A stretch of DNA of 64,000 nucleotides from an uncultured bacterium. GTDB taxonomy: Bacteria; Patescibacteriota; Dojkabacteria; J137. Made by a program: the position numbers and the translations under genes. The notes beneath the pieces are model-generated. The model made no database searches and was not told the origin of the DNA. It saw only the letters and a list, made by a program, of their open reading frames with translations. The stretch is from the NCBI GenBank assembly GCA_963700155.1, contig OY969472.1, positions 1,064,690 to 1,128,689 on the forward strand, written 5' to 3'. Numbering within the stretch: the stretch's first letter is position 1; every line of letters starts with the position of its first letter. This document shows, one piece after another, positions 3,813-63,819 of this stretch.

Positions 3813-5354
3813 ATGGATGATAAAAAAAGTTCAGATTTAATTGGTCAAAGAAAACAAAGACTCGAAAAAGTTAAAAAGTTAAGAGATTTAGGTATAGACC
3901 CTTATCCAGCTAAATCTTTTAGAACTAACACTATAAAAGAAATTATTGATAACCCAGAACAATATTTGGTTGAGCAAGAAAAGAAGGGGAAAGAGGTTGT
4001 CTTAGCAGGAAGAATTACTAGTTGGAGAGGGCACGGGAAATTAGCCTTTGCTGATTTGGTAGATCAGGATGCTAAAATACAACTTTATATTAAAGATGAT
4101 GTATTGTCAGTAAAGGAGATTGAAGGTGGAAGGACACTCTCTTTTGATGAACTTGAACTAGTAGATGTTTATGATTTTATCGAGGTTTATGGTCAAATTA
4201 CTAAAACAAGAAGAGGTGAGCTTTCAATTCTTGTTAAACATTTAAGAATTTTAACTAAAGTATTAAGGCCACTGCCTACTTCACTTGAAGACAAAGAAGA
4301 AAGATTTAGAAGAAGATATGTTGATATGGCTGTTCATCCTGAAATTCGTGAACGAATGGAAAGAAGGTCACTTTTTTGGCAAGCACACAGAGAATTTTTG
4401 AATCAAAGAGGTTTTTATGAAATTAATATACCAGTTTTAGAGCATGTCCCTGGTGGTGGTGATGCTGTACCTTTTACTACACATATGAATGCTTTAGACG
4501 AGGACTTTTATCTTAGAATCTCTCATGAACTTCCATTAAAACGTCTAATTGGAGGAGGCTTTGAGAAAGTATATGATATTGGTGCAAGATTTAGAAATGA
4601 AGGATTATCTGATGAACATTTGCCCGAACATATAGCAATGGAATTTTATTGGGCATATGCGGATTGGAAAGATGGTATGAAATTTATTCAAGAATTATTT
4701 ACTTATGTTATAGGTAGAGTTTATGGTGATAAAAAAGTATTTAAAATTAGAGAATTTGAAGTAGATTTTTCAAAAGATTGGGAGATTGTTGATTTCAATA
4801 AAATAATGCAGGATAAATATGGTATCAAAAATATCTACTCAATTACTTTAGATGAAGTTAAAGAACTTCTAAGTAAAAATGAAATAGAATTTGATAGAAG
4901 CGTAAATATAGCAAGAGGTGTTGATGCATTATGGAAAAGGCTAAGAAAGACAATTCAAGGACCAGCATTTTTAGTAAATCATCCTAAATTTTTATCACCA
5001 TTACAGAAACCAAGTTTAGAAAATCCAAATATGGTTGAAAGATTTCAGCCGATTATTGCTGGAAGTGAATTAGGAAACGGCTGGAGCGAGGTTAATGATG
5101 CAGTTGATCAATATCAAAGATTTGTAGAGCAGCAAAATTTAAGAGATTCAGGAGATGCTGAAGCTCAATGGCTTGATGTTGATTACGTTGAGATGCTTGA
5201 ATATGGAATTCCACCTACATTTGGCTGGGGACATTCGGAAAGGGTTTTCTGGTTCTTAGAAGACGTTACTGCGAGAGAAGGTGTACCTTTCCCACAACTT
5301 AAAATGGATTTTGATAATATTACTAAAGAAATTTATCCAGAAGCTTTCGAGTAA
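3813..5354 (+). CDS. lysS: lysine--tRNA ligase, class II
   Basis: 513 aa with an N-terminal OB anticodon-binding domain. Class II motifs are present (FRNEGLS..H.PEH..MEFYWAY, GGGDAVPF, GWG.SERV). Confidence 0.9.
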   Translation: MDDKKSSDLIGQRKQRLEKVKKLRDLGIDPYPAKSFRTNTIKEIIDNPEQYLVEQEKKGKEVVLAGRITSWRGHGKLAFADLVDQDAKIQLYIKDDVLSVKEIEGGRTLSFDELELVDVYDFIEVYGQITKTRRGELSILVKHLRILTKVLRPLPTSLEDKEERFRRRYVDMAVHPEIRERMERRSLFWQAHREFLNQRGFYEINIPVLEHVPGGGDAVPFTTHMNALDEDFYLRISHELPLKRLIGGGFEKVYDIGARFRNEGLSDEHLPEHIAMEFYWAYADWKDGMKFIQELFTYVIGRVYGDKKVFKIREFEVDFSKDWEIVDFNKIMQDKYGIKNIYSITLDEVKELLSKNEIEFDRSVNIARGVDALWKRLRKTIQGPAFLVNHPKFLSPLQKPSLENPNMVERFQPIIAGSELGNGWSEVNDAVDQYQRFVEQQNLRDSGDAEAQWLDVDYVEMLEYGIPPTFGWGHSERVFWFLEDVTAREGVPFPQLKMDFDNITKEIYPEAFE

Positions 5355-5384: not shown

Positions 5385-5410
5385 CGCCGTCGTTTTACCG
5401 AACGGCGCCG
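5385..5410. terminator. GC-rich hairpin (GCGCCG-N13-CGGCGC) between lysS and the minus-strand GC-rich RNA
   Basis: An 8-bp GC stem. On the minus strand it is followed by a U-rich tract (UAAUACCUUUCUU). The plus-strand side lacks a U tract, so it more likely terminates the minus-strand transcript. Confidence 0.4.
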
Positions 5411-5712
5411 AGGTACGGCTTTCCTAGCCTTGCCTCCAGGTCGGTTAGTACCGTTGCCTTAGGAGAACCAAAGTCCTCCAATGACCGATGAGCGATGTGG
5501 TCTGCTAGACGACAACTCTGAATCTGATGAGGTTGTTCGCCTGACGGTTCGCGGCGTTGAGGATGAGAATTCCTTCTTCGCGGCGAGTTTCATTGGAGTT
5601 ACCCTTAGAACCGTACATGATGCAAATCCTCCACTATTCATCGGTCTGCTCAGGCTCTGCCTTGTGAGCATCGGCCATGTGCATTGGCAAGAATATATCA
5701 TAGATAGTTTTT
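5385..5712 (-). ncRNA. GC-rich structured RNA candidate, possibly RNase P RNA (rnpB-like); identity unconfirmed
   Basis: About 52% GC across 330 nt in a roughly 28% GC genome. Both overlapping ORFs (5459-5743 minus, 5481-5714 plus) translate to implausible low-complexity proteins. Minus-strand blocks resemble RNase P type-A conserved regions, in the correct 5'-to-3' order (compared with E. coli M1 RNA recalled from memory). GCUCACAAGGCAGAGCC resembles GGGCUCCAUAGGGCAGGGUGCC. UAAGGGUAACUCCAAUGAAAC...GCCGCGAAGAAGG resembles GUAAGGGUGAAAGGGUGCGGUAAGAGCG. GCAGACCACAUCGCUCAUCGGUCAU resembles ACAGAACCCGGCUUAUCGGUCAG. There is long-range complementarity: AUGGCCGAUG with CAUCGGUCAU, and ACCGAUGA with UCAUCGGU. 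The element ends in a terminator hairpin. Confidence 0.35.
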
Positions 5713-5780: not shown

Positions 5781-6134
5781 ATGATTAGTCTTATAAAATT
5801 AAAACTTAATAAAATATTTAAAAATGAATTTCAAGAATTTGAAGACAATAAATCGGAAACTCAACAGCACTTGGAAGACATACTTATTAAATTTACAAAA
5901 GAGTATAAGCATGATTTAGCATTTGCATATGATATGCAAGATATGTATGGCACAGTAGAAGTTTTTAGGAAATATAAACCTTTAGTAGCAGAATTTTATA
6001 ATAATATTTTAAATTCAAATATTGATGAGGAATTATATGTTGAATATTTATCAATAAAGAATGGACTTCCTATGTATATTATTAGAGATCTTCTAACTGA
6101 ATCACAGGAATTGCTTAATCTATCAGAATCCTAA
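5781..6134 (+). CDS. hypothetical protein
   Basis: 117 aa ORF. Confidence 0.4.
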   Translation: MISLIKLKLNKIFKNEFQEFEDNKSETQQHLEDILIKFTKEYKHDLAFAYDMQDMYGTVEVFRKYKPLVAEFYNNILNSNIDEELYVEYLSIKNGLPMYIIRDLLTESQELLNLSES

Positions 6135-20786: not shown

Positions 20787-21028
20787 GTACTAAAAAATCT
20801 TAACTATAAATGAATCTATTGATATAATTAAAATTATATAATTGAACGAAATTATGAATGTAAATGAAATTGCTACAGCGAATTTTAATACATTTATAAG
20901 TTTTTTCCCTGAAGCTAAACTTACTTCTGATCAAAAAGAAGTCTTAAAGTTTTTTTTTTCTAATCTACTATTTTGAAACAATAGCTGATAATTCAAATGT
21001 AATAGATGGTTTTGAATATGATTACTGG

Positions 21029-21430
21029 GTGGACGACGTAATAAAACAGATACAACTTTTTATAAATTCAAAAAAAATTGAACTTAGTTCAAATCAATTT
21101 AATAGTTTTATCGAATATTTCGTACTTAATTTAATAAAAATATATATTTATTTTTTTAATTCTAAAAATAGAAGGAATAATATTTATAAGATTTTAAATA
21201 AAACATTAAATAAAATCAGGGCTATTCCTGAAGAATACAACTATGTATCAAAAGTATTAGAAGAAAACTCACTTGAGATTTACAAATCTCGTAATTACGA
21301 TTTTTCTGTAAAGGAAATACTAGTTGCTTTAAGTAATCTTTTAGATATTTATAAGATTGATCCGAAGTTGAGAAAACAGCTTGAGATCAAAATTAGAAGC
21401 ATATTTGAAATTTACATAATCGAATCTTAA
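21029..21430 (+). CDS. hypothetical protein; probably the downstream part of a gene interrupted at a T10 tract (see findings)
   Basis: GTG-initiated ORF. The same frame is open from 20948, and a separate ATG-initiated 40-codon ORF (20854-20976) is linked to it by a +1 shift within TTTTTTTTTT at 20950-20959. Confidence 0.4.
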
Positions 21431-22326
21431 TTAAGATTGTTAAGTATATCTCTTAACTCTGCAGCATTTTCAAATTCAAGCATATCTGCGAAGAGTTGCA
21501 TTTGGAACTTTAATTCTTTAACAAATTTCTTCTGTTCGGCTTTTGGCATTGCCTTGTAACCTTCTGCACGTTTTTTAATATCATCTTCTTTCTCTTCAGA
21601 TTCTTTATCAACTTCTTTAAATTTATCTAATTGATCTCTAATTTCTTTCTTAATACTCTGAGGAGTAATTCCATGTTCTTTGTTAAATTTGTCTTGAATT
21701 TCTCTTCTTCTTCGAGTTTCATCAATAGCAAACTTCATAGAATCAGTAATTCTGTCTGCATACATAATTACCCTACCTTCAACATGTCGTGCTGCTCTTC
21801 CTATAACTTGAATTAGACTAGTTTGTGATCTTAAAAATCCTTCTTTATCTGCATCTAGAATAGCAACAAGAGATACTTCCGGAAGATCTAGACCTTCTCT
21901 TAATAAATTAATCCCTACTAAAACATCATATAATCCTTTTCTTAAGTCTCTAAGTATTTCAACTCTTTCTACTGTATCAATATCAGAATGTAAATATTTA
22001 CTTTTAATACCTTTTTCTATTAAAAAGTCAGAGAGTTCTTCTGACATTCTCTTTGTTAAAGTTGTTACTAGAACTCTCTGACCTTTCCCAATAACTTTAG
22101 TAATTTCATCTATTAAATCAGGAACTTGTGGCTTTTCCCATGTGGTTGAAGAATATGCTGGCATATTGGTATATCCATTTTTTTTCAGTTCATTTTTTAC
22201 TTTTTCAAAGGTTTCAGGCAAAGATGGTCTTATTTCAACGTATGGGTCTAAAAGACCAGTTGGCCTAATGATTTGATACACAATGCCTTCATAATTTTTA
22301 GGAAGATTATTATTCATAACTAGCAT
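21427..22326 (-). CDS. uvrB: excinuclease ABC subunit B, C-terminal half only (helicase domain 2 plus UvrC-interaction UVR domain)
   Basis: Near-identical to UvrB residues about 410-670 ([74 protein letters not shown]-terminal EFE.AAELRD). The ORF is only 299 aa. No N-terminal ATPase/beta-hairpin half lies upstream; 22330-22560 is non-coding. Confidence 0.8.
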
Positions 22327-22562
22327 TTTAACATGCGTATACTATTTCTTTAATAATTCATAATGTTTTCATTTCAAGAAGATATTATAAAAATAAGTAG
22401 TAATTCAGTCATTTATTTTGGCTTGATAAGTTATAAAATATTGACATGTTTCACACCAAAAATCGTGATACATATAATGATACAGTAATATGCTATTTAA
22501 TCTTGTCAAAATACATTGGAGGGAGTACTATTTAAATAGTAATATATTTTATCATCATTCTG

Positions 22563-22919
22563 ATGAAATACCTTTTTACTGCACCAGCACTTACAAAACC
22601 AACTTTCGAAACTCTTCAAGAGTATTCAATTAAACGATTCAATAAAATCGAAAAACTTCTTAAGGATATAAGATCCTCTGAGTTAAATTTGAAAATATCA
22701 GTCACAAAAGTGAAACACACATTTTGTATTGTAGTCGAAATTTATATGGGTAATATAAGTAAACCTATAATAGTAAAAGAGAAGGACAATGATCTAAGAA
22801 GAATAATTGATAAAGCTTCTGCACAATTGAAAAACGAAATTATTAAGAATAAAAAGAAAAGATTTGATCTATCTAGATTAAGGAAACATTCAAAAAAAAC
22901 TTTTAATAATTACAGTTAA
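22563..22919 (+). CDS. hpf: ribosome hibernation promoting factor / ribosomal subunit interface protein
   Basis: 118 aa; pattern and size match the RaiA/HPF family. Confidence 0.6.
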   Translation: MKYLFTAPALTKPTFETLQEYSIKRFNKIEKLLKDIRSSELNLKISVTKVKHTFCIVVEIYMGNISKPIIVKEKDNDLRRIIDKASAQLKNEIIKNKKKRFDLSRLRKHSKKTFNNYS

Positions 22920-23009
22920 TTTACAGTTTTATTGATTTAATCATTTAAATAACATAAAATTTAAAAACTTGGTTAATGCCAAGAAATCAAAATTGAAAGG
23001 AGGAAAAAA

Positions 23010-46128: not shown

Positions 46129-48081
46129 TTACATATTTTGAGTTTGTGGAGGATTTTGTGGTTGTTCTGGAGGTTGTACTGGTTGAGTTACATCTTCAAC
46201 ACTTGGGAGTTCTTTGTTTTCAATATCTAATTGATCACCAGCTGGTGCATTAATTTTATTAGATAAAATTTCATTTGGATTTGTTGTAATTAGATTATGC
46301 TCATTTTCACTGGCTACAACTTGTATTGCAACATGATTAGCACCTGCAAAGAATATTCCTTGGCCAATTCCAGCAGACATTAAGAAAGATTTTTCTCCAT
46401 CTGTAAGATAAAATACTTTTTGAAGTTTATCTATGGCTGCAGGTGATTGTTTTAATAAAATTTGCATTGCTGAGTTATTAACTATCGCTTTACCATAATC
46501 TGAAGTCAAGAAATCATCGACATCTTGAGTTATTGTCGTTAATCCTAATCCATACTTTCTTGCTCTTTTCGCGATTGAGTATACGAATCTAGCAGCATCG
46601 TCATATTGCATCATAATCCAAGCTTCATCTATGATTAACAATCTTTTTCTCTTGTCTCTTTTAATCTTTGTCCAGATATAATCAAGCATGACATACATTG
46701 CCATTGGTCTTAAATCTTCAGTTAAGTCACGAATACTAAATACTGTGAAAGTGTTATGAATGTCAATGTTTGATCTTTTATCAAATACACCAGCTGCAGA
46801 TCCTTTTATATATTTTTCTAATCTTGTTGCCATTGAATGAGCTTCATTTTCTGCCATTGCATTTAGTATTTTATATAAATCTTCTAAAAGCGGAGCTTCA
46901 TTAGTATGTGTAGATGGGTCTGGAGTAATCCCTTTTTCTTTATAAGTTAAAATTAAAGCTCTATCTAAAATTGCACTTTCTTCAGGAGTTATATTTCCTC
47001 CAAGCATCATTCTTATGAGTCCAGCAACTGTTAAAATTTTAAATCTAAGTTCATCTTCATCTTTTTGATATATACCTGATAATTCAAATGGATTTAATTT
47101 TTGAGCACCATCTTGTGAGAATGAAATATATTCACCACCAACAGCATTACATAATCTATCAAATTCTTTTTCAGGATCAATAATTATAATATCAACTCCA
47201 AGCATTAATGATCTAACTGCTTCTAATTTAACTGTATATGATTTTCCTGCTCCAGATGTTGCTAATACAACAGAGTTTGCATTTGGTAAAGAAAATCGAT
47301 CGAATATAACTAAAGAATTATTGTGTAGATTTATCCCATATAAAACACCTTTTTCCATAGTTAATTCTGAACTTACAAATGGAAAAGTAGTTGCTATGGC
47401 AGTTGTATCAAGATTTCTAAGCATATTTATCTTATCTTGACCGTAAGGAATTGTACTTTGAAAACATTCTTCTTGTTGTAGTGTAGCAACTTTAATAATT
47501 ACACCAATTGTTGACATAGTAGATTCTAAATTTTTTCCTACTTTATCCAATTCATCTAAACTATCTGCATGAATTGTAACGTAAAGTGCATATTGGAAAA
47601 ATTTTTCATTACCAGCTGCAAGTTGTTCTTGGAGTGTTAAAGCATCTTGAAGTTGTTGTTTGGTTACAGGATCTCCTTGTTGGCCAGATTCAACTTGAAT
47701 ATTTATAGTTGCTTGCATCTCGGCAATTTTTCTTTTAAGTACTTTTAATATTTCACCAGTATCATGTGGATAATAAAAAGTACTTATATCAACTGGATAT
47801 TCAAAATTGATTAATGGTTCAAGCCAGTTTGGGACAACTACACTTGGGAAACCTATTGCAAAATACGATCTGAAATATCTATTCCCAATTATCAAGTTAT
47901 TAAAATTAACTTCAATTGCTGAAGGAGCAATAATATCTTTAACATCAACCATCCCTTGTACAAATTTTTGTACAGCAGTTTGCTCTTTAGTTAGAGCTTC
48001 AGCTTCTTGTTGAGAAACTGGGTCATCGTTTTTCTTTTTAGTTCCTCCTGTTAAATTTTTAACAAAGTCAAGTAATGCCAT
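46129..48081 (-). CDS. VirB4/TrbE/CagE-family conjugative-type ATPase
   Basis: Walker A ATSGAGKS; Walker B LLIIDEAW; 650 aa; Pro/Gln-rich C-terminal tail. Confidence 0.7.
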   Translation of the reverse strand: MALLDFVKNLTGGTKKKNDDPVSQQEAEALTKEQTAVQKFVQGMVDVKDIIAPSAIEVNFNNLIIGNRYFRSYFAIGFPSVVVPNWLEPLINFEYPVDISTFYYPHDTGEILKVLKRKIAEMQATINIQVESGQQGDPVTKQQLQDALTLQEQLAAGNEKFFQYALYVTIHADSLDELDKVGKNLESTMSTIGVIIKVATLQQEECFQSTIPYGQDKINMLRNLDTTAIATTFPFVSSELTMEKGVLYGINLHNNSLVIFDRFSLPNANSVVLATSGAGKSYTVKLEAVRSLMLGVDIIIIDPEKEFDRLCNAVGGEYISFSQDGAQKLNPFELSGIYQKDEDELRFKILTVAGLIRMMLGGNITPEESAILDRALILTYKEKGITPDPSTHTNEAPLLEDLYKILNAMAENEAHSMATRLEKYIKGSAAGVFDKRSNIDIHNTFTVFSIRDLTEDLRPMAMYVMLDYIWTKIKRDKRKRLLIIDEAWIMMQYDDAARFVYSIAKRARKYGLGLTTITQDVDDFLTSDYGKAIVNNSAMQILLKQSPAAIDKLQKVFYLTDGEKSFLMSAGIGQGIFFAGANHVAIQVVASENEHNLITTNPNEILSNKINAPAGDQLDIENKELPSVEDVTQPVQPPEQPQNPPQTQNM

Positions 48082-61284: not shown

Positions 61285-63819
61285 TTAATTTATGATACTT
61301 TTTAGATTTTTCAGTCTTTCAACTTCTTCAGCTAGAATTTGAATATATAAAGCATATCCGATAGTTGAGATGTAACCGCTTTGTTCTTCACCTAAAAGAT
61401 TCCCAGCTCCTCGTATTTCTAAATCTCTACTAGCAATCCTAAATCCTGCTCCCAAATCTTGATTATCTACAAGAGTTTGCAGTCTATCTATGTATTTTTT
61501 CTGAATTATTTTACCTTCTTTATTATCAACAAAATCAACTGAGGATTTCCTAGGAGATATTAAATAACAATATCCACTTTTTGTTGATCTACCAACTCTC
61601 CCTCTTAATTGGTATAGTTGAGAAAGTCCAAATCTTTGAGAATTATTAATTATGATTGTGTTTACATTTGGGAGGTCAAGTCCATTTTCTATAATTGTTG
61701 AACAAATTAAACAATCGTACTTTCCTTTATAGAATTCTGTCATAACTTTATCAAGCTCATCACTTCTCATTTGACCATGAGCAATAGTAAATCGAATTCC
61801 TGGCATTAAATTATTTAATTTCAACTTCATTTGATTTATTGACTGAACTTCATTATGAAGAAAATAGACTTGACCTCCCCTTTTGACCTCAAAGTTAATA
61901 GCTTCAGTTATTTTATTATAATCTTCATGGATAATTTCAGTATGAATAGGTTTTCGTTCTTTTGGTGGCTGACTAATAATAGAAATATCCTGAATTGATG
62001 ATAAAGCCATACTTAAGGTTCTAGGTATTGGAGTTGCACTTACTGATAATAAATGTACACCATAATTTAATTGCTTAATTTTTTCCTTTTGTTTAACTCC
62101 AAAACGTTGTTCTTCATCAACAACAACTAGTTGTAAATTCTTAAATTTAACATCAGAACTTAACAATCTATGAGTACCAATAACAATATCAACGATACCA
62201 TTATTTACATCTTCAATAATTTTTTTATTTTTCTCTGTGGAATTAAACCTAGAAAGATATTCTATTCTAAAGGGGAAGCTTTTAAACCTTTCTTCGAAAA
62301 CTGCATAGTGTTGAGCTGTAAGTATTGTAGTAGGTGAAAGTACTGCCACTTGACCTCCATCTTCAACTATTTTAAATGCAGCTCTCATAAATACTTCAGT
62401 TTTACCAAATCCAACATCTCCAACTAATAAACGATTCATGGGTTTATCTTTTGTTAAATCAGACAATACTTCATTAATAGAATTCAATTGATCTTCAGTT
62501 TCAATATATTTAAATTCATCGACAAATTGTTTATAGTCTTTAGTATCAGAATTTGAGACAGGATTTGCTTCAGAGATTTCTCTTTTAGCAAAGTGTTCAA
62601 TAAGGTCGCGAGCCAAGAGTTCTGTAGATTTCTTTATTTTTGACTTTAAATGTTCCCATGATACTTTACCCAGTCGTGTAATTCTTGGCTCGCGACCTTC
62701 GGTACCAATGTATTTAGTTATCTTTTCAATTTGGTGAATTGGGACAAATAATTCATCATCGTCTGCATACTTGATTGATAAGTATTCTAATGATTCATTA
62801 TTAACTATCTCTTGTTTTAATCCTGAATAAATTCCAATCCCGTAGTCTTCGTGAACTACATAATCTCCAATTTGAATACTACCTTCGAATTGTTTTAGTA
62901 GTTTTTTTAAATTTGAAGTAACCTTTTTAATTCTTTCTGGTCTTGTTAAGTAAATTGCTCCAAATAATTCTCTATCTGTAAAAATTGCTATTTTTAATTT
63001 CTCAGAGATAAATCCAGCATCAAGGTGTTTTGAATTTAAGTTTCTAACAAATGATTTTGAAACAAAATCATATATTTTTACTTTTGCAATAGTCTTATTT
63101 GTGTATCCCTTAAGAAGTTTAAAGAGATCATTCTTATTTTTTGTTTTTATTAAAATTTGATAATTATTTCTTTCTAAAGATTGAATTTCTTTTTCTAGTA
63201 AAGCAAAATTGTGGTAGAAAAGATGAGGATATTGGAAATCAGAATTAATAAGCTTAATAGTATTACTCTCTTTAAGATCGTTTATTGAATTTACGAATAT
63301 ATATTTTGAAAATGATTTTGAAATATTAATTTCTGCAGAAATTTTTATACTATCCTGTTCGAGCTTTTCATCAAGAATATAGTTACTTAAATAAAGTTGA
63401 TTCAAGTATTTTATTCTTCTGTTATATAACTCGTCATAAGAGTATATTTTTTCAAGATCATTACCAAAGAATTCTAATCGTATTGGATGATCATAACCTA
63501 TTGGCCAGAACGAGATAGTGTCTCCTTTTATACTAAATTGAAGTTTTTCAGTAATTTCATTTACTTTCTCATAACTTAATGAGTTGTTGCTTAAATTGTC
63601 ATCTACTTTTAAAGTTGCAGAATTTAAATTGCTACTTGAACTTAGGTAATTAGCGATTTTTTGAAAAGTTATTTCCTTCAAAGTCCATATTTGCAAACTT
63701 TCAAAAAATCTTATTATGCTATCTGAGTAAATGTCTGAGTATACGAAAGCCTCCTCTTTTGAAATAAAGAGGGGTATTAAGTGAGGTAATGTTTTTATAA
63801 TTTGTATCTTTGAAGACAC
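61285..63819 (-). CDS. mfd: transcription-repair coupling factor, shortened form
   Basis: CarD/TRCF RNAP-interaction domain (IGDYVVHEDYGIGIY); SF2 translocase motifs (GDVGFGKTEV, DEEQRFGV, TATPIPRT, QLRGRVGR). Only 844 aa, against about 1150 in full-length Mfd, so the N-terminal UvrB-homology region and the C-terminal D7 appear reduced. Confidence 0.75.
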   Translation of the reverse strand: MSSKIQIIKTLPHLIPLFISKEEAFVYSDIYSDSIIRFFESLQIWTLKEITFQKIANYLSSSSNLNSATLKVDDNLSNNSLSYEKVNEITEKLQFSIKGDTISFWPIGYDHPIRLEFFGNDLEKIYSYDELYNRRIKYLNQLYLSNYILDEKLEQDSIKISAEINISKSFSKYIFVNSINDLKESNTIKLINSDFQYPHLFYHNFALLEKEIQSLERNNYQILIKTKNKNDLFKLLKGYTNKTIAKVKIYDFVSKSFVRNLNSKHLDAGFISEKLKIAIFTDRELFGAIYLTRPERIKKVTSNLKKLLKQFEGSIQIGDYVVHEDYGIGIYSGLKQEIVNNESLEYLSIKYADDDELFVPIHQIEKITKYIGTEGREPRITRLGKVSWEHLKSKIKKSTELLARDLIEHFAKREISEANPVSNSDTKDYKQFVDEFKYIETEDQLNSINEVLSDLTKDKPMNRLLVGDVGFGKTEVFMRAAFKIVEDGGQVAVLSPTTILTAQHYAVFEERFKSFPFRIEYLSRFNSTEKNKKIIEDVNNGIVDIVIGTHRLLSSDVKFKNLQLVVVDEEQRFGVKQKEKIKQLNYGVHLLSVSATPIPRTLSMALSSIQDISIISQPPKERKPIHTEIIHEDYNKITEAINFEVKRGGQVYFLHNEVQSINQMKLKLNNLMPGIRFTIAHGQMRSDELDKVMTEFYKGKYDCLICSTIIENGLDLPNVNTIIINNSQRFGLSQLYQLRGRVGRSTKSGYCYLISPRKSSVDFVDNKEGKIIQKKYIDRLQTLVDNQDLGAGFRIASRDLEIRGAGNLLGEEQSGYISTIGYALYIQILAEEVERLKNLKSIIN

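Follow-up and report, generated by a model that had tools for sequence, protein, structure and literature searches.

We report that a 64,000-nt stretch of Candidatus Dojkabacteria DNA (contig OY969472.1, positions 1,064,690 to 1,128,689; hereafter the window) carries a gene for the C-terminal half (C-half) of UvrB that stands alone, with no N-terminal half (N-half) upstream. In bacterial nucleotide excision repair, damage is verified by UvrB, the central helicase of the pathway. The open reading frame (ORF) lies on the minus strand at 21427..22326, stop codon included, and encodes 299 aa from the ATG at 22326 or, probably, 296 aa from the ATG at 22317. The C-half is preserved by purifying selection across the class Dojkabacteria, and we consider it probable that uvrB is naturally split in these bacteria, the C-half being one of two pieces that come together non-covalently. 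A sequence-only reading of the window had pointed to this ORF, which is real, but the gene had to be assigned to the minus strand.

The ORF spans UvrB from just past helicase motif III to the UVR hairpin. Pfam Helicase_C was matched at residues 74–181 (2.1e-21), and this match, residue mapping to the B. subtilis UvrB structure 2d7d and Foldseek define the RecA-like helicase domain 2 (UvrB domain 3) with motifs IV–VI at 21784..22107. It is followed by the UvrB-specific helical segment PF12344 at residues 188–230 (21637..21765; Pfam, 2.9e-24) and the UVR helical hairpin (UvrB domain 4, PF02151) at residues 266–298 (21433..21531; 23.4 bits against a cut-off of 21.5), all on the minus strand. That is, a second RecA-like domain with motifs IV–VI and the arginine finger is present together with PF12344 and the UVR hairpin. 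The ORF lacks UvrB residues 1 to ~392, which comprise Walker A/B, the beta-hairpin (YYDYYQPEAY), domains 1b and 2, and motif III. The whole-protein UvrB equivalog models were matched at model positions 426–657 only, and the scores fell below their cut-offs (NF003673, 349.4 bits vs 743; TIGR00631, 345.5 vs 750.1).

An E. coli UvrB sequence was used as the query; it was validated by aligning over residues 5–670 to ~70 full-length uvrB genes. By tblastn, its residues ~393/401–665 were matched by the ORF at 49% identity. The near residue-for-residue correspondence to UvrB claimed in the sequence-only reading holds at this level of identity, but it is interrupted by a 29-aa insertion after EIRP. 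The portion of the tblastn alignment upstream of the ATG crossed two stop codons without real identity, and the closest in-frame stop lies 6 codons 5' of ATG 22326. We then used eight N-half queries on the 64-kb window. They matched only the UvrB-like D2 domain of Mfd; no Walker A, beta-hairpin or UvrB domain 2 was found in the window outside Mfd D2. The stand-alone state of the C-half and the absence of the Walker A and beta-hairpin regions were thus borne out as first claimed.

Sequence alignment places the break in uvrB directly after helicase motif III (SAT), because all family members begin 1–4 residues ahead of a conserved LP that aligns to the post-SAT stretch (50 members compared). The ORF starts exactly where 67 full-length UvrBs read SAT-PGxYE in the alignment; the LPxxYxG of the C-half corresponds to the (T)PGxYE of full-length UvrB, and 14 further residues align after it. 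The resulting N-terminal tail, residues 8–28 (21 residues; 22243..22305, minus strand), is homologous to the (T)PGxYE...QxIRPTGLxDP stretch 3' of motif III in full-length UvrB. It is near-invariant across the 50 members and is among the best-conserved stretches of the C-half protein. In an AlphaFold model of the C-half, residues 1–24 had a pLDDT below 50, i.e., the tail was modelled as disordered. A conserved tail with a low pLDDT is a pattern that suits a segment folding on a partner.

The insertion is specific to the family. It occupies approximately residues 36–64 (22135..22221, minus strand), behind the first domain 3 strand and ahead of the QxDDL helix, and it was missing from 67/67 full-length UvrBs in the alignment. 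Positions P37, M55, P56 and W63 are conserved among the 50 members, and the insertion was modelled as a helix (37–49) and a short helix (56–59) with a pLDDT of 94–96. Unrelated insertions of ~30–45 aa were observed at the same site in a full-length UvrB (P0138, 727 aa) and in an N-terminally cut one (P0154, 401 aa). By sequence comparison, this position, just past the first domain 3 strand, seems to be prone to insertions.

The predicted fold of the C-half is that of UvrB domain 3. The mean pLDDT of the model was 75.7, that of the core and most of domain 3 was ~90, and the UVR hairpin was modelled as helices 262–281 and 285–298. In a Foldseek search against the PDB, ranks 1–23 were all UvrB structures (E = 1.6e-20 to 4e-15), most of them with an rmsd of 2.5–3.9 Å over ~210 columns. 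A gap-free alignment to B. subtilis UvrB (2d7d) equated R143, D147, F164, R177 and R180 with R506, D510, F527, R540 and R543. All five residues are invariant in 50/50 family members. In UvrB, they form a DNA-contact and ATP-coupling network, in which R543 is an essential ATP-binding residue (PMC3458569). The ATP site of UvrB sits between domains 1a and 3, and domain 3 supplies half of it (PMC7835731, PMC3458569). Since the ATP-site residues are invariant and the site is shared between two domains, a P-loop domain would still dock on the C-half; the invariance of the five domain-3 residues makes sense only with such a docked domain.

Next, we assessed how far the gene is conserved. A protein search from the window ORF retrieved at least 120 clusters of 291–329 aa at 65–100% identity. 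When the search was repeated from P0122, the representative that diverges most (65% identical), a nearly identical set was retrieved. In both searches, every named cluster was Candidatus Dojkabacteria or Patescibacteria. The family comprises ~130 clusters, down to 59–65% identity, with no full-length protein among the matches listed. As judged from these protein sequences, it is closed and uniform, because two distant seeds retrieve almost the same clusters. Among 1.84 billion representatives at 50% identity, it was the only genuine ~300-aa form of UvrB; other representatives of ~300 aa were contig-edge fragments in which SATPG was still present. The rank-1 representative match, P0121 (763 aa), was set aside because ~350 C-terminal UvrB residues are repeated head to tail in it, most likely an assembly artefact that inflates its score. 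In databases, C-half proteins are labelled "UvrB/UvrC motif-containing", "excinuclease ABC subunit B" or "hypothetical".

The reading frame is intact in all family members. Among three orthologues, dN/dS was 0.06–0.12, with pS of 0.63–0.74 and saturated synonymous sites. We found the stand-alone gene on nine independent contigs from NCBI, ENA, JGI and Logan assemblies, and one member occurs on 49 contigs. The question of whether the split is conserved in relatives, raised in the sequence-only reading, is answered: it is class-wide in Dojkabacteria. The same data bear on the possibility that the C-half is a decaying remnant or an artefact, i.e., a recent truncation, a pseudogene or a chimeric joint at ~22330. 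The abrupt start and the AT-rich upstream region would be expected in such a case, but ~130 clusters share the same start with intact frames and low dN/dS, and the same gene boundary recurs beside varied neighbours in independent assemblies from four data sources. We therefore regard a remnant or artefact as highly improbable, and these observations refute both the very recent truncation (pseudogene) and the misjoin considered earlier.

The C-half is an independent ORF, with an upstream in-frame stop, a putative promoter, and divergent or unrelated upstream neighbours. Its neighbourhoods are of three kinds (PGK…RNase H…HD…hpf<>uvrB-C; SSB<>uvrB-C-mnmA; YchF<>uvrB-C). In the window, the gene is separated from an hpf-like gene (22563–22919) by a divergent intergenic spacer of 236 bp with 22.9% GC (22327..22562), in agreement with the ~230 bp of AT-rich non-coding DNA described at first; the window as a whole has 27.9% GC. 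No remnant of the N-half was found in this spacer by tblastn. An extended -10-like element, TGtTAAAAT, lies at 22325..22333 on the minus strand and ends 7 nt 5' of ATG 22317, and ATG 22326 falls inside it. The pattern TGnTAAAAT or TGnTATAAT, a putative promoter by sequence, was found 6–7 nt 5' of the start codon in four lineages, those of the window and of the loci L001, L003 and L132. Because the element overlaps ATG 22326, the true start is probably ATG 22317 rather than the first ATG. The sequence-only reading had an in-frame MLK upstream; the residues there read YTHVK-MLVM, and the likely start is the second ATG. The spacing of the element suggests that the transcript is leaderless or nearly so.

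We also considered a joining of the halves after expression, by a split intein or RNA trans-splicing. Nothing speaks for such a joining beyond the gene being split. A C-intein fragment has ~35 aa and ends in HN, followed by Cys/Ser/Thr. Merely 1–4 variable residues precede the UvrB-homologous LPxxYxG, which leaves no space for a C-intein, and no Rfam match to an intron or ribozyme was found in 21000–23000 even at E ≤ 1. Post-expression joining is thus scarcely credible, and even jointly with an artefact or a pseudogene it would account for a very small share of the probability.

Subsequently, we examined whether the pathway that uses UvrB is present. The window encodes an Mfd of 844 aa (61285..63819, minus strand) with UvrB_inter (the UvrA-binding, UvrB-like D2), RID, DEAD and Helicase_C domains and no D7. 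It passes TIGR00580 (814 vs a cut-off of 800). On the E. coli-type model, which has 1148 residues, it stops near position 988, indicating that the C-terminal D7 region is missing. This short D7-less form (780–890 aa) is class-wide, with at least 120 Dojkabacteria clusters. In three Dojkabacteria (L300, L301 and L305), uvrA lies directly upstream of mfd; one of the three is the closest relative found, whose Mfd is 75% identical. The three uvrA genes encode 1000–1028 aa with UvrA_inter and UvrA_DNA-bind domains, the UvrB/Mfd-binding domain PF17760 being among them. By synteny, uvrA of the present genome is probably located just past the end of the window. Since uvrA adjoins mfd in relatives and Mfd passes TIGR00580 with its UvrA-binding domain, excision repair looks retained rather than decaying; the keeping of uvrA and mfd means that a pathway needing UvrB is kept. 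The proposal that nucleotide excision repair is remodelled together with a shortened mfd is therefore correct as to the missing D7, but the protein otherwise qualifies as Mfd, keeps its UvrA-binding domain, has its short form class-wide, and is encoded near uvrA in relatives. In a complete Dojkabacteria genome (AP024679.1), we also observed 2.2 kb directly 5' of uvrA (L301 4809–6989) with no called gene and no ORF of at least 70 aa; it may represent an RNA gene or the remains of a decayed one.

The retained pathway could also be served by a normal full-length uvrB elsewhere in the genome, and the C-half would then be an N-terminally truncated duplicate with a regulatory role, e.g., as a competitor for UvrC or as its chaperone, by way of the UVR hairpin. 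The hairpin is kept in the C-half, and a full-length UvrB with ~55% identity would fall below the at least 120 clusters listed. However, the C-half is as similar to canonical UvrBs (49–58% identity) as orthologues of different phyla are among themselves, and the catalytic and DNA-contact residues of domain 3 are all invariant, which would be needless for a mere UvrC-binding regulator. In addition, no full-length uvrB was present in ~400 kb of Dojkabacteria DNA, and duplicate genes are uncommon in genomes of ~1 Mb. An accessory paralogue is accordingly quite unlikely.

We then searched for the N-half beyond the window. The Dojkabacteria loci surveyed extended up to 10 kb on each side of the C-half gene or mfd in at least nine genomes and were partly redundant. 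In 12 neighbourhoods of C-half and mfd homologues, no ResIII/UvrB_inter gene was found besides mfd. A contig scan with the C-half, which was dominated by the universal peptide MYADRITD, gave one Dojkabacteria locus (L003) and 79 full-length uvrB loci of other phyla among the matches listed. In the IMG/VR scan, N-half alignment revealed no N-half-only locus among 48 uvrB loci; one candidate, L122, was rejected as a phage/host chimera. We also used a DNA pattern for the N-half that required FRLPSAxDNRP and forbade Y396/E397 codons; it passed 0/128 local core-motif matches. In metagenomes, it revealed no Dojkabacteria N-half among the at least 120 matches listed; these came from uvrB copies that were truncated, frameshifted, chimerically joined or altered by a one-codon indel. 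AT-biased codon patterns were dropped, as their sensitivity was too low on real Dojkabacteria genes. With generic or AT-biased profiles, for which the C-half served as a proxy, Dojkabacteria ranked last, so that an N-half could not be listed by protein search. No Dojkabacteria DNA was found in the plasmid and phage collections.

Other broken uvrB genes were encountered in these searches. On four metagenome contigs (L231, L264, L277 and L289), uvrB breaks between DNRPL and motif III and continues in-frame into unrelated sequence, including HIT-like and Fic-like. None of the four resembles Dojkabacteria, and they probably reflect chimeric assembly or rearranged remnants. Two Chloroflexota genomes have the opening ~45 uvrB residues, to the Walker A region, 1.3–1.7 kb upstream of the remaining gene (L008, 7115–7240 and 8912–10786; L017, 4404–4535 and 5820–7688), which suggests an intein, an intron or a mobile insertion in the gap. 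A 59-kb contig filed as viral (L083/L124, IMGVR_UViG_3300024243_001175; GC 23–25%) has a uvrB with TGA at Walker A Gly positions, and it looks like a cellular fragment using genetic code 25 (Gracilibacteria-like).

The missing N-half raises the possibility that it was lost and that the C-half works as an orphan module with another protein that gives a P-loop domain or a docking platform, such as the UvrB-homology module of the D7-less Mfd. D7 normally masks the UvrB-like D2 of Mfd and is autoinhibitory (PMC7835731). Its absence from Dojkabacteria Mfd, the family-specific structured insertion of the C-half, and the lack of an N-half in the surveyed DNA are compatible with such a partnership. 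However, the Mfd of the window matches UvrB models over D2 only and could not use the conserved arginine finger; the UvrB-like module of characterised Mfd proteins has no ATPase motifs. The tail retains the exact UvrB sequence after motif III, suggesting a fit to UvrB domain 1a, and UvrA keeps its UvrB-binding domain, though Mfd needs the same domain. We judge an orphan module to be rather unlikely. The strongest form of this idea holds that Dojkabacteria have no UvrB N-half at all and that the tail and insertion of the C-half dock on another P-loop protein or, most attractively, on the UvrB-homology module of the D7-less Mfd. It is quite unlikely; if true, it would mean a rewired excision-repair machine in which UvrA/Mfd is coupled directly to UvrC.

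We favour a split UvrB, the better supported of the two possibilities named in the sequence-only reading, and infer an N-terminal piece encoded at another place in the genome. We postulate that uvrB broke just past helicase motif III (SAT) in the ancestor of Candidatus Dojkabacteria. The C-piece would then hold ~20 post-motif-III residues (probably the hinge together with the strand that ends the first RecA-like domain), the whole of domain 3 with motifs IV–VI, the UvrB-specific helices, and the UVR hairpin that binds UvrC. Its expression would be driven by a promoter of its own, probably giving a leaderless mRNA, and the C-piece would assemble non-covalently with a separately encoded N-piece that supplies domain 2 for UvrA binding as well as Walker A/B and the beta-hairpin. 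The near-invariant tail of the C-piece may dock into this partner, and the 29-aa insertion may help to keep C-piece and N-piece in contact. Once reassembled, the protein would have a closed ATP site between its RecA-like domains and work as an ordinary UvrB with UvrA, Mfd and UvrC.

Several points weigh against this proposal. By tblastn with E. coli UvrB plus seven further N-halves, nothing but Mfd D2 was matched in the window and in ~337 kb of loci from relatives (overlaps counted), so that no N-half was found there; in genomes of 0.86–1.19 Mb, this is weak negative evidence. A canonical full-length uvrB may also lie elsewhere in Dojkabacteria genomes. We know of no characterised precedent for a helicase split inside its first RecA-like domain. 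The tail is presumably the last strand of domain 1a plus the hinge, an assignment based on general SF2/UvrB topology, and the docking mechanism is speculative.

The C-half was then compared with known systems. The canonical UvrB structures considered were 2D7D/2NMV and 3V4R (B. subtilis), 1D9Z/2FDC/6O8E (B. caldotenax) and 1C4O (T. thermophilus). The C-half shares domain 3 motifs IV–VI, the UvrB-specific helices and the UVR hairpin with canonical UvrB at 49–62% identity, keeps residues R506, D510, F527, R540 and R543, and has the partners uvrA and mfd in its lineage. It differs in lacking residues 1 to ~392, in its insertion and in its separate putative transcription unit. Domain 4, the UVR hairpin, binds UvrC and autoinhibits UvrB in characterised systems (PMC7835731). 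That UvrB domains can occur as polypeptides of their own and still bind partners is shown by proteolytic UvrB*, which lacks domain 4, and by the isolated C-terminal domain used in UvrC-binding studies (cited in PMC7835731). Those fragments are products of proteolysis or of in vitro work, with the cut between domains 3 and 4, whereas the C-half is genome-encoded and starts after motif III. The UvrB-homology module of Mfd (D1a-D2-D1b) is likewise a portion of UvrB architecture that occurs in another protein, in this case one encoded in the same window. The module corresponds to the N-terminal portion of UvrB, has no ATPase motifs and is joined to a translocase, whereas the C-half is complementary to it and stands alone.

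A further parallel is the reverse gyrase of Nanoarchaeum equitans, which is encoded by two unlinked genes in a reduced genome and is presumed to reassemble non-covalently. In both cases, a multidomain ATP-dependent DNA enzyme of one ancestral gene would be encoded in pieces in a reduced genome. However, the reverse gyrase is split between modules, whereas the uvrB break apparently lies inside the first RecA-like domain, so that the ATP site would form between two polypeptides. Moreover, both pieces of the reverse gyrase are encoded in N. equitans, whereas Dojkabacteria uvrB is known from the C-piece alone. The literature that we searched contained no account of a naturally split, truncated or stand-alone uvrB.

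Downstream of the C-half, a terminator-like hairpin with a T-run lies at 21216..21231 on the minus strand, ~200 nt past the stop codon and within an opposite-strand ORF (21029–21430); four terminator-like sites were observed against 0.4 expected in shuffles. This 133-aa ORF, on the plus strand with a GTG start and no Pfam match, converges on the C-half gene with a 4-nt overlap. No counterpart of it was seen in L132 and L134, where mnmA is directly 3' of the C-half, and it may not be a real gene. In L311 and L312, the gene abutting the C-half is a glycosyltransferase tail. A gene pair encoding a TraC-like and a TraG P-loop (VirB4-type) ATPase recurs in Dojkabacteria (window 46129–48081, minus strand; L300 16450–19075; L311 1700–4292) and adjoins the C-half gene in one case. 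Elsewhere in the window, an island of ~50% GC in this 28% GC genome lies at 5390–5710, between a class II aminoacyl-tRNA synthetase gene (3813–5354) and an ORF (5781–6134). It had no Rfam match even at E ≤ 1 and contained no tmRNA. Its folding gave z = -3.1 on the minus strand and z = -1.8 on the plus strand, and it is probably an unannotated structured RNA.

uvrB serves as a phylogenomic marker gene, and a split uvrB may bias completeness and phylogeny estimates for Dojkabacteria. To our knowledge, every characterised UvrB has its two RecA-like domains in one chain, and its ATP site and limited translocation depend on their movement. A class in which the second motor domain is a separate, conserved gene would be a natural experiment on the need for covalent linkage; if the N-half does not exist, the finding would be considerably more important. 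The Dojkabacteria C-half could show what can be replaced by a docking tail plus an extra helical insertion, and how a fission within a RecA-like domain becomes fixed in a genome of ~1 Mb.

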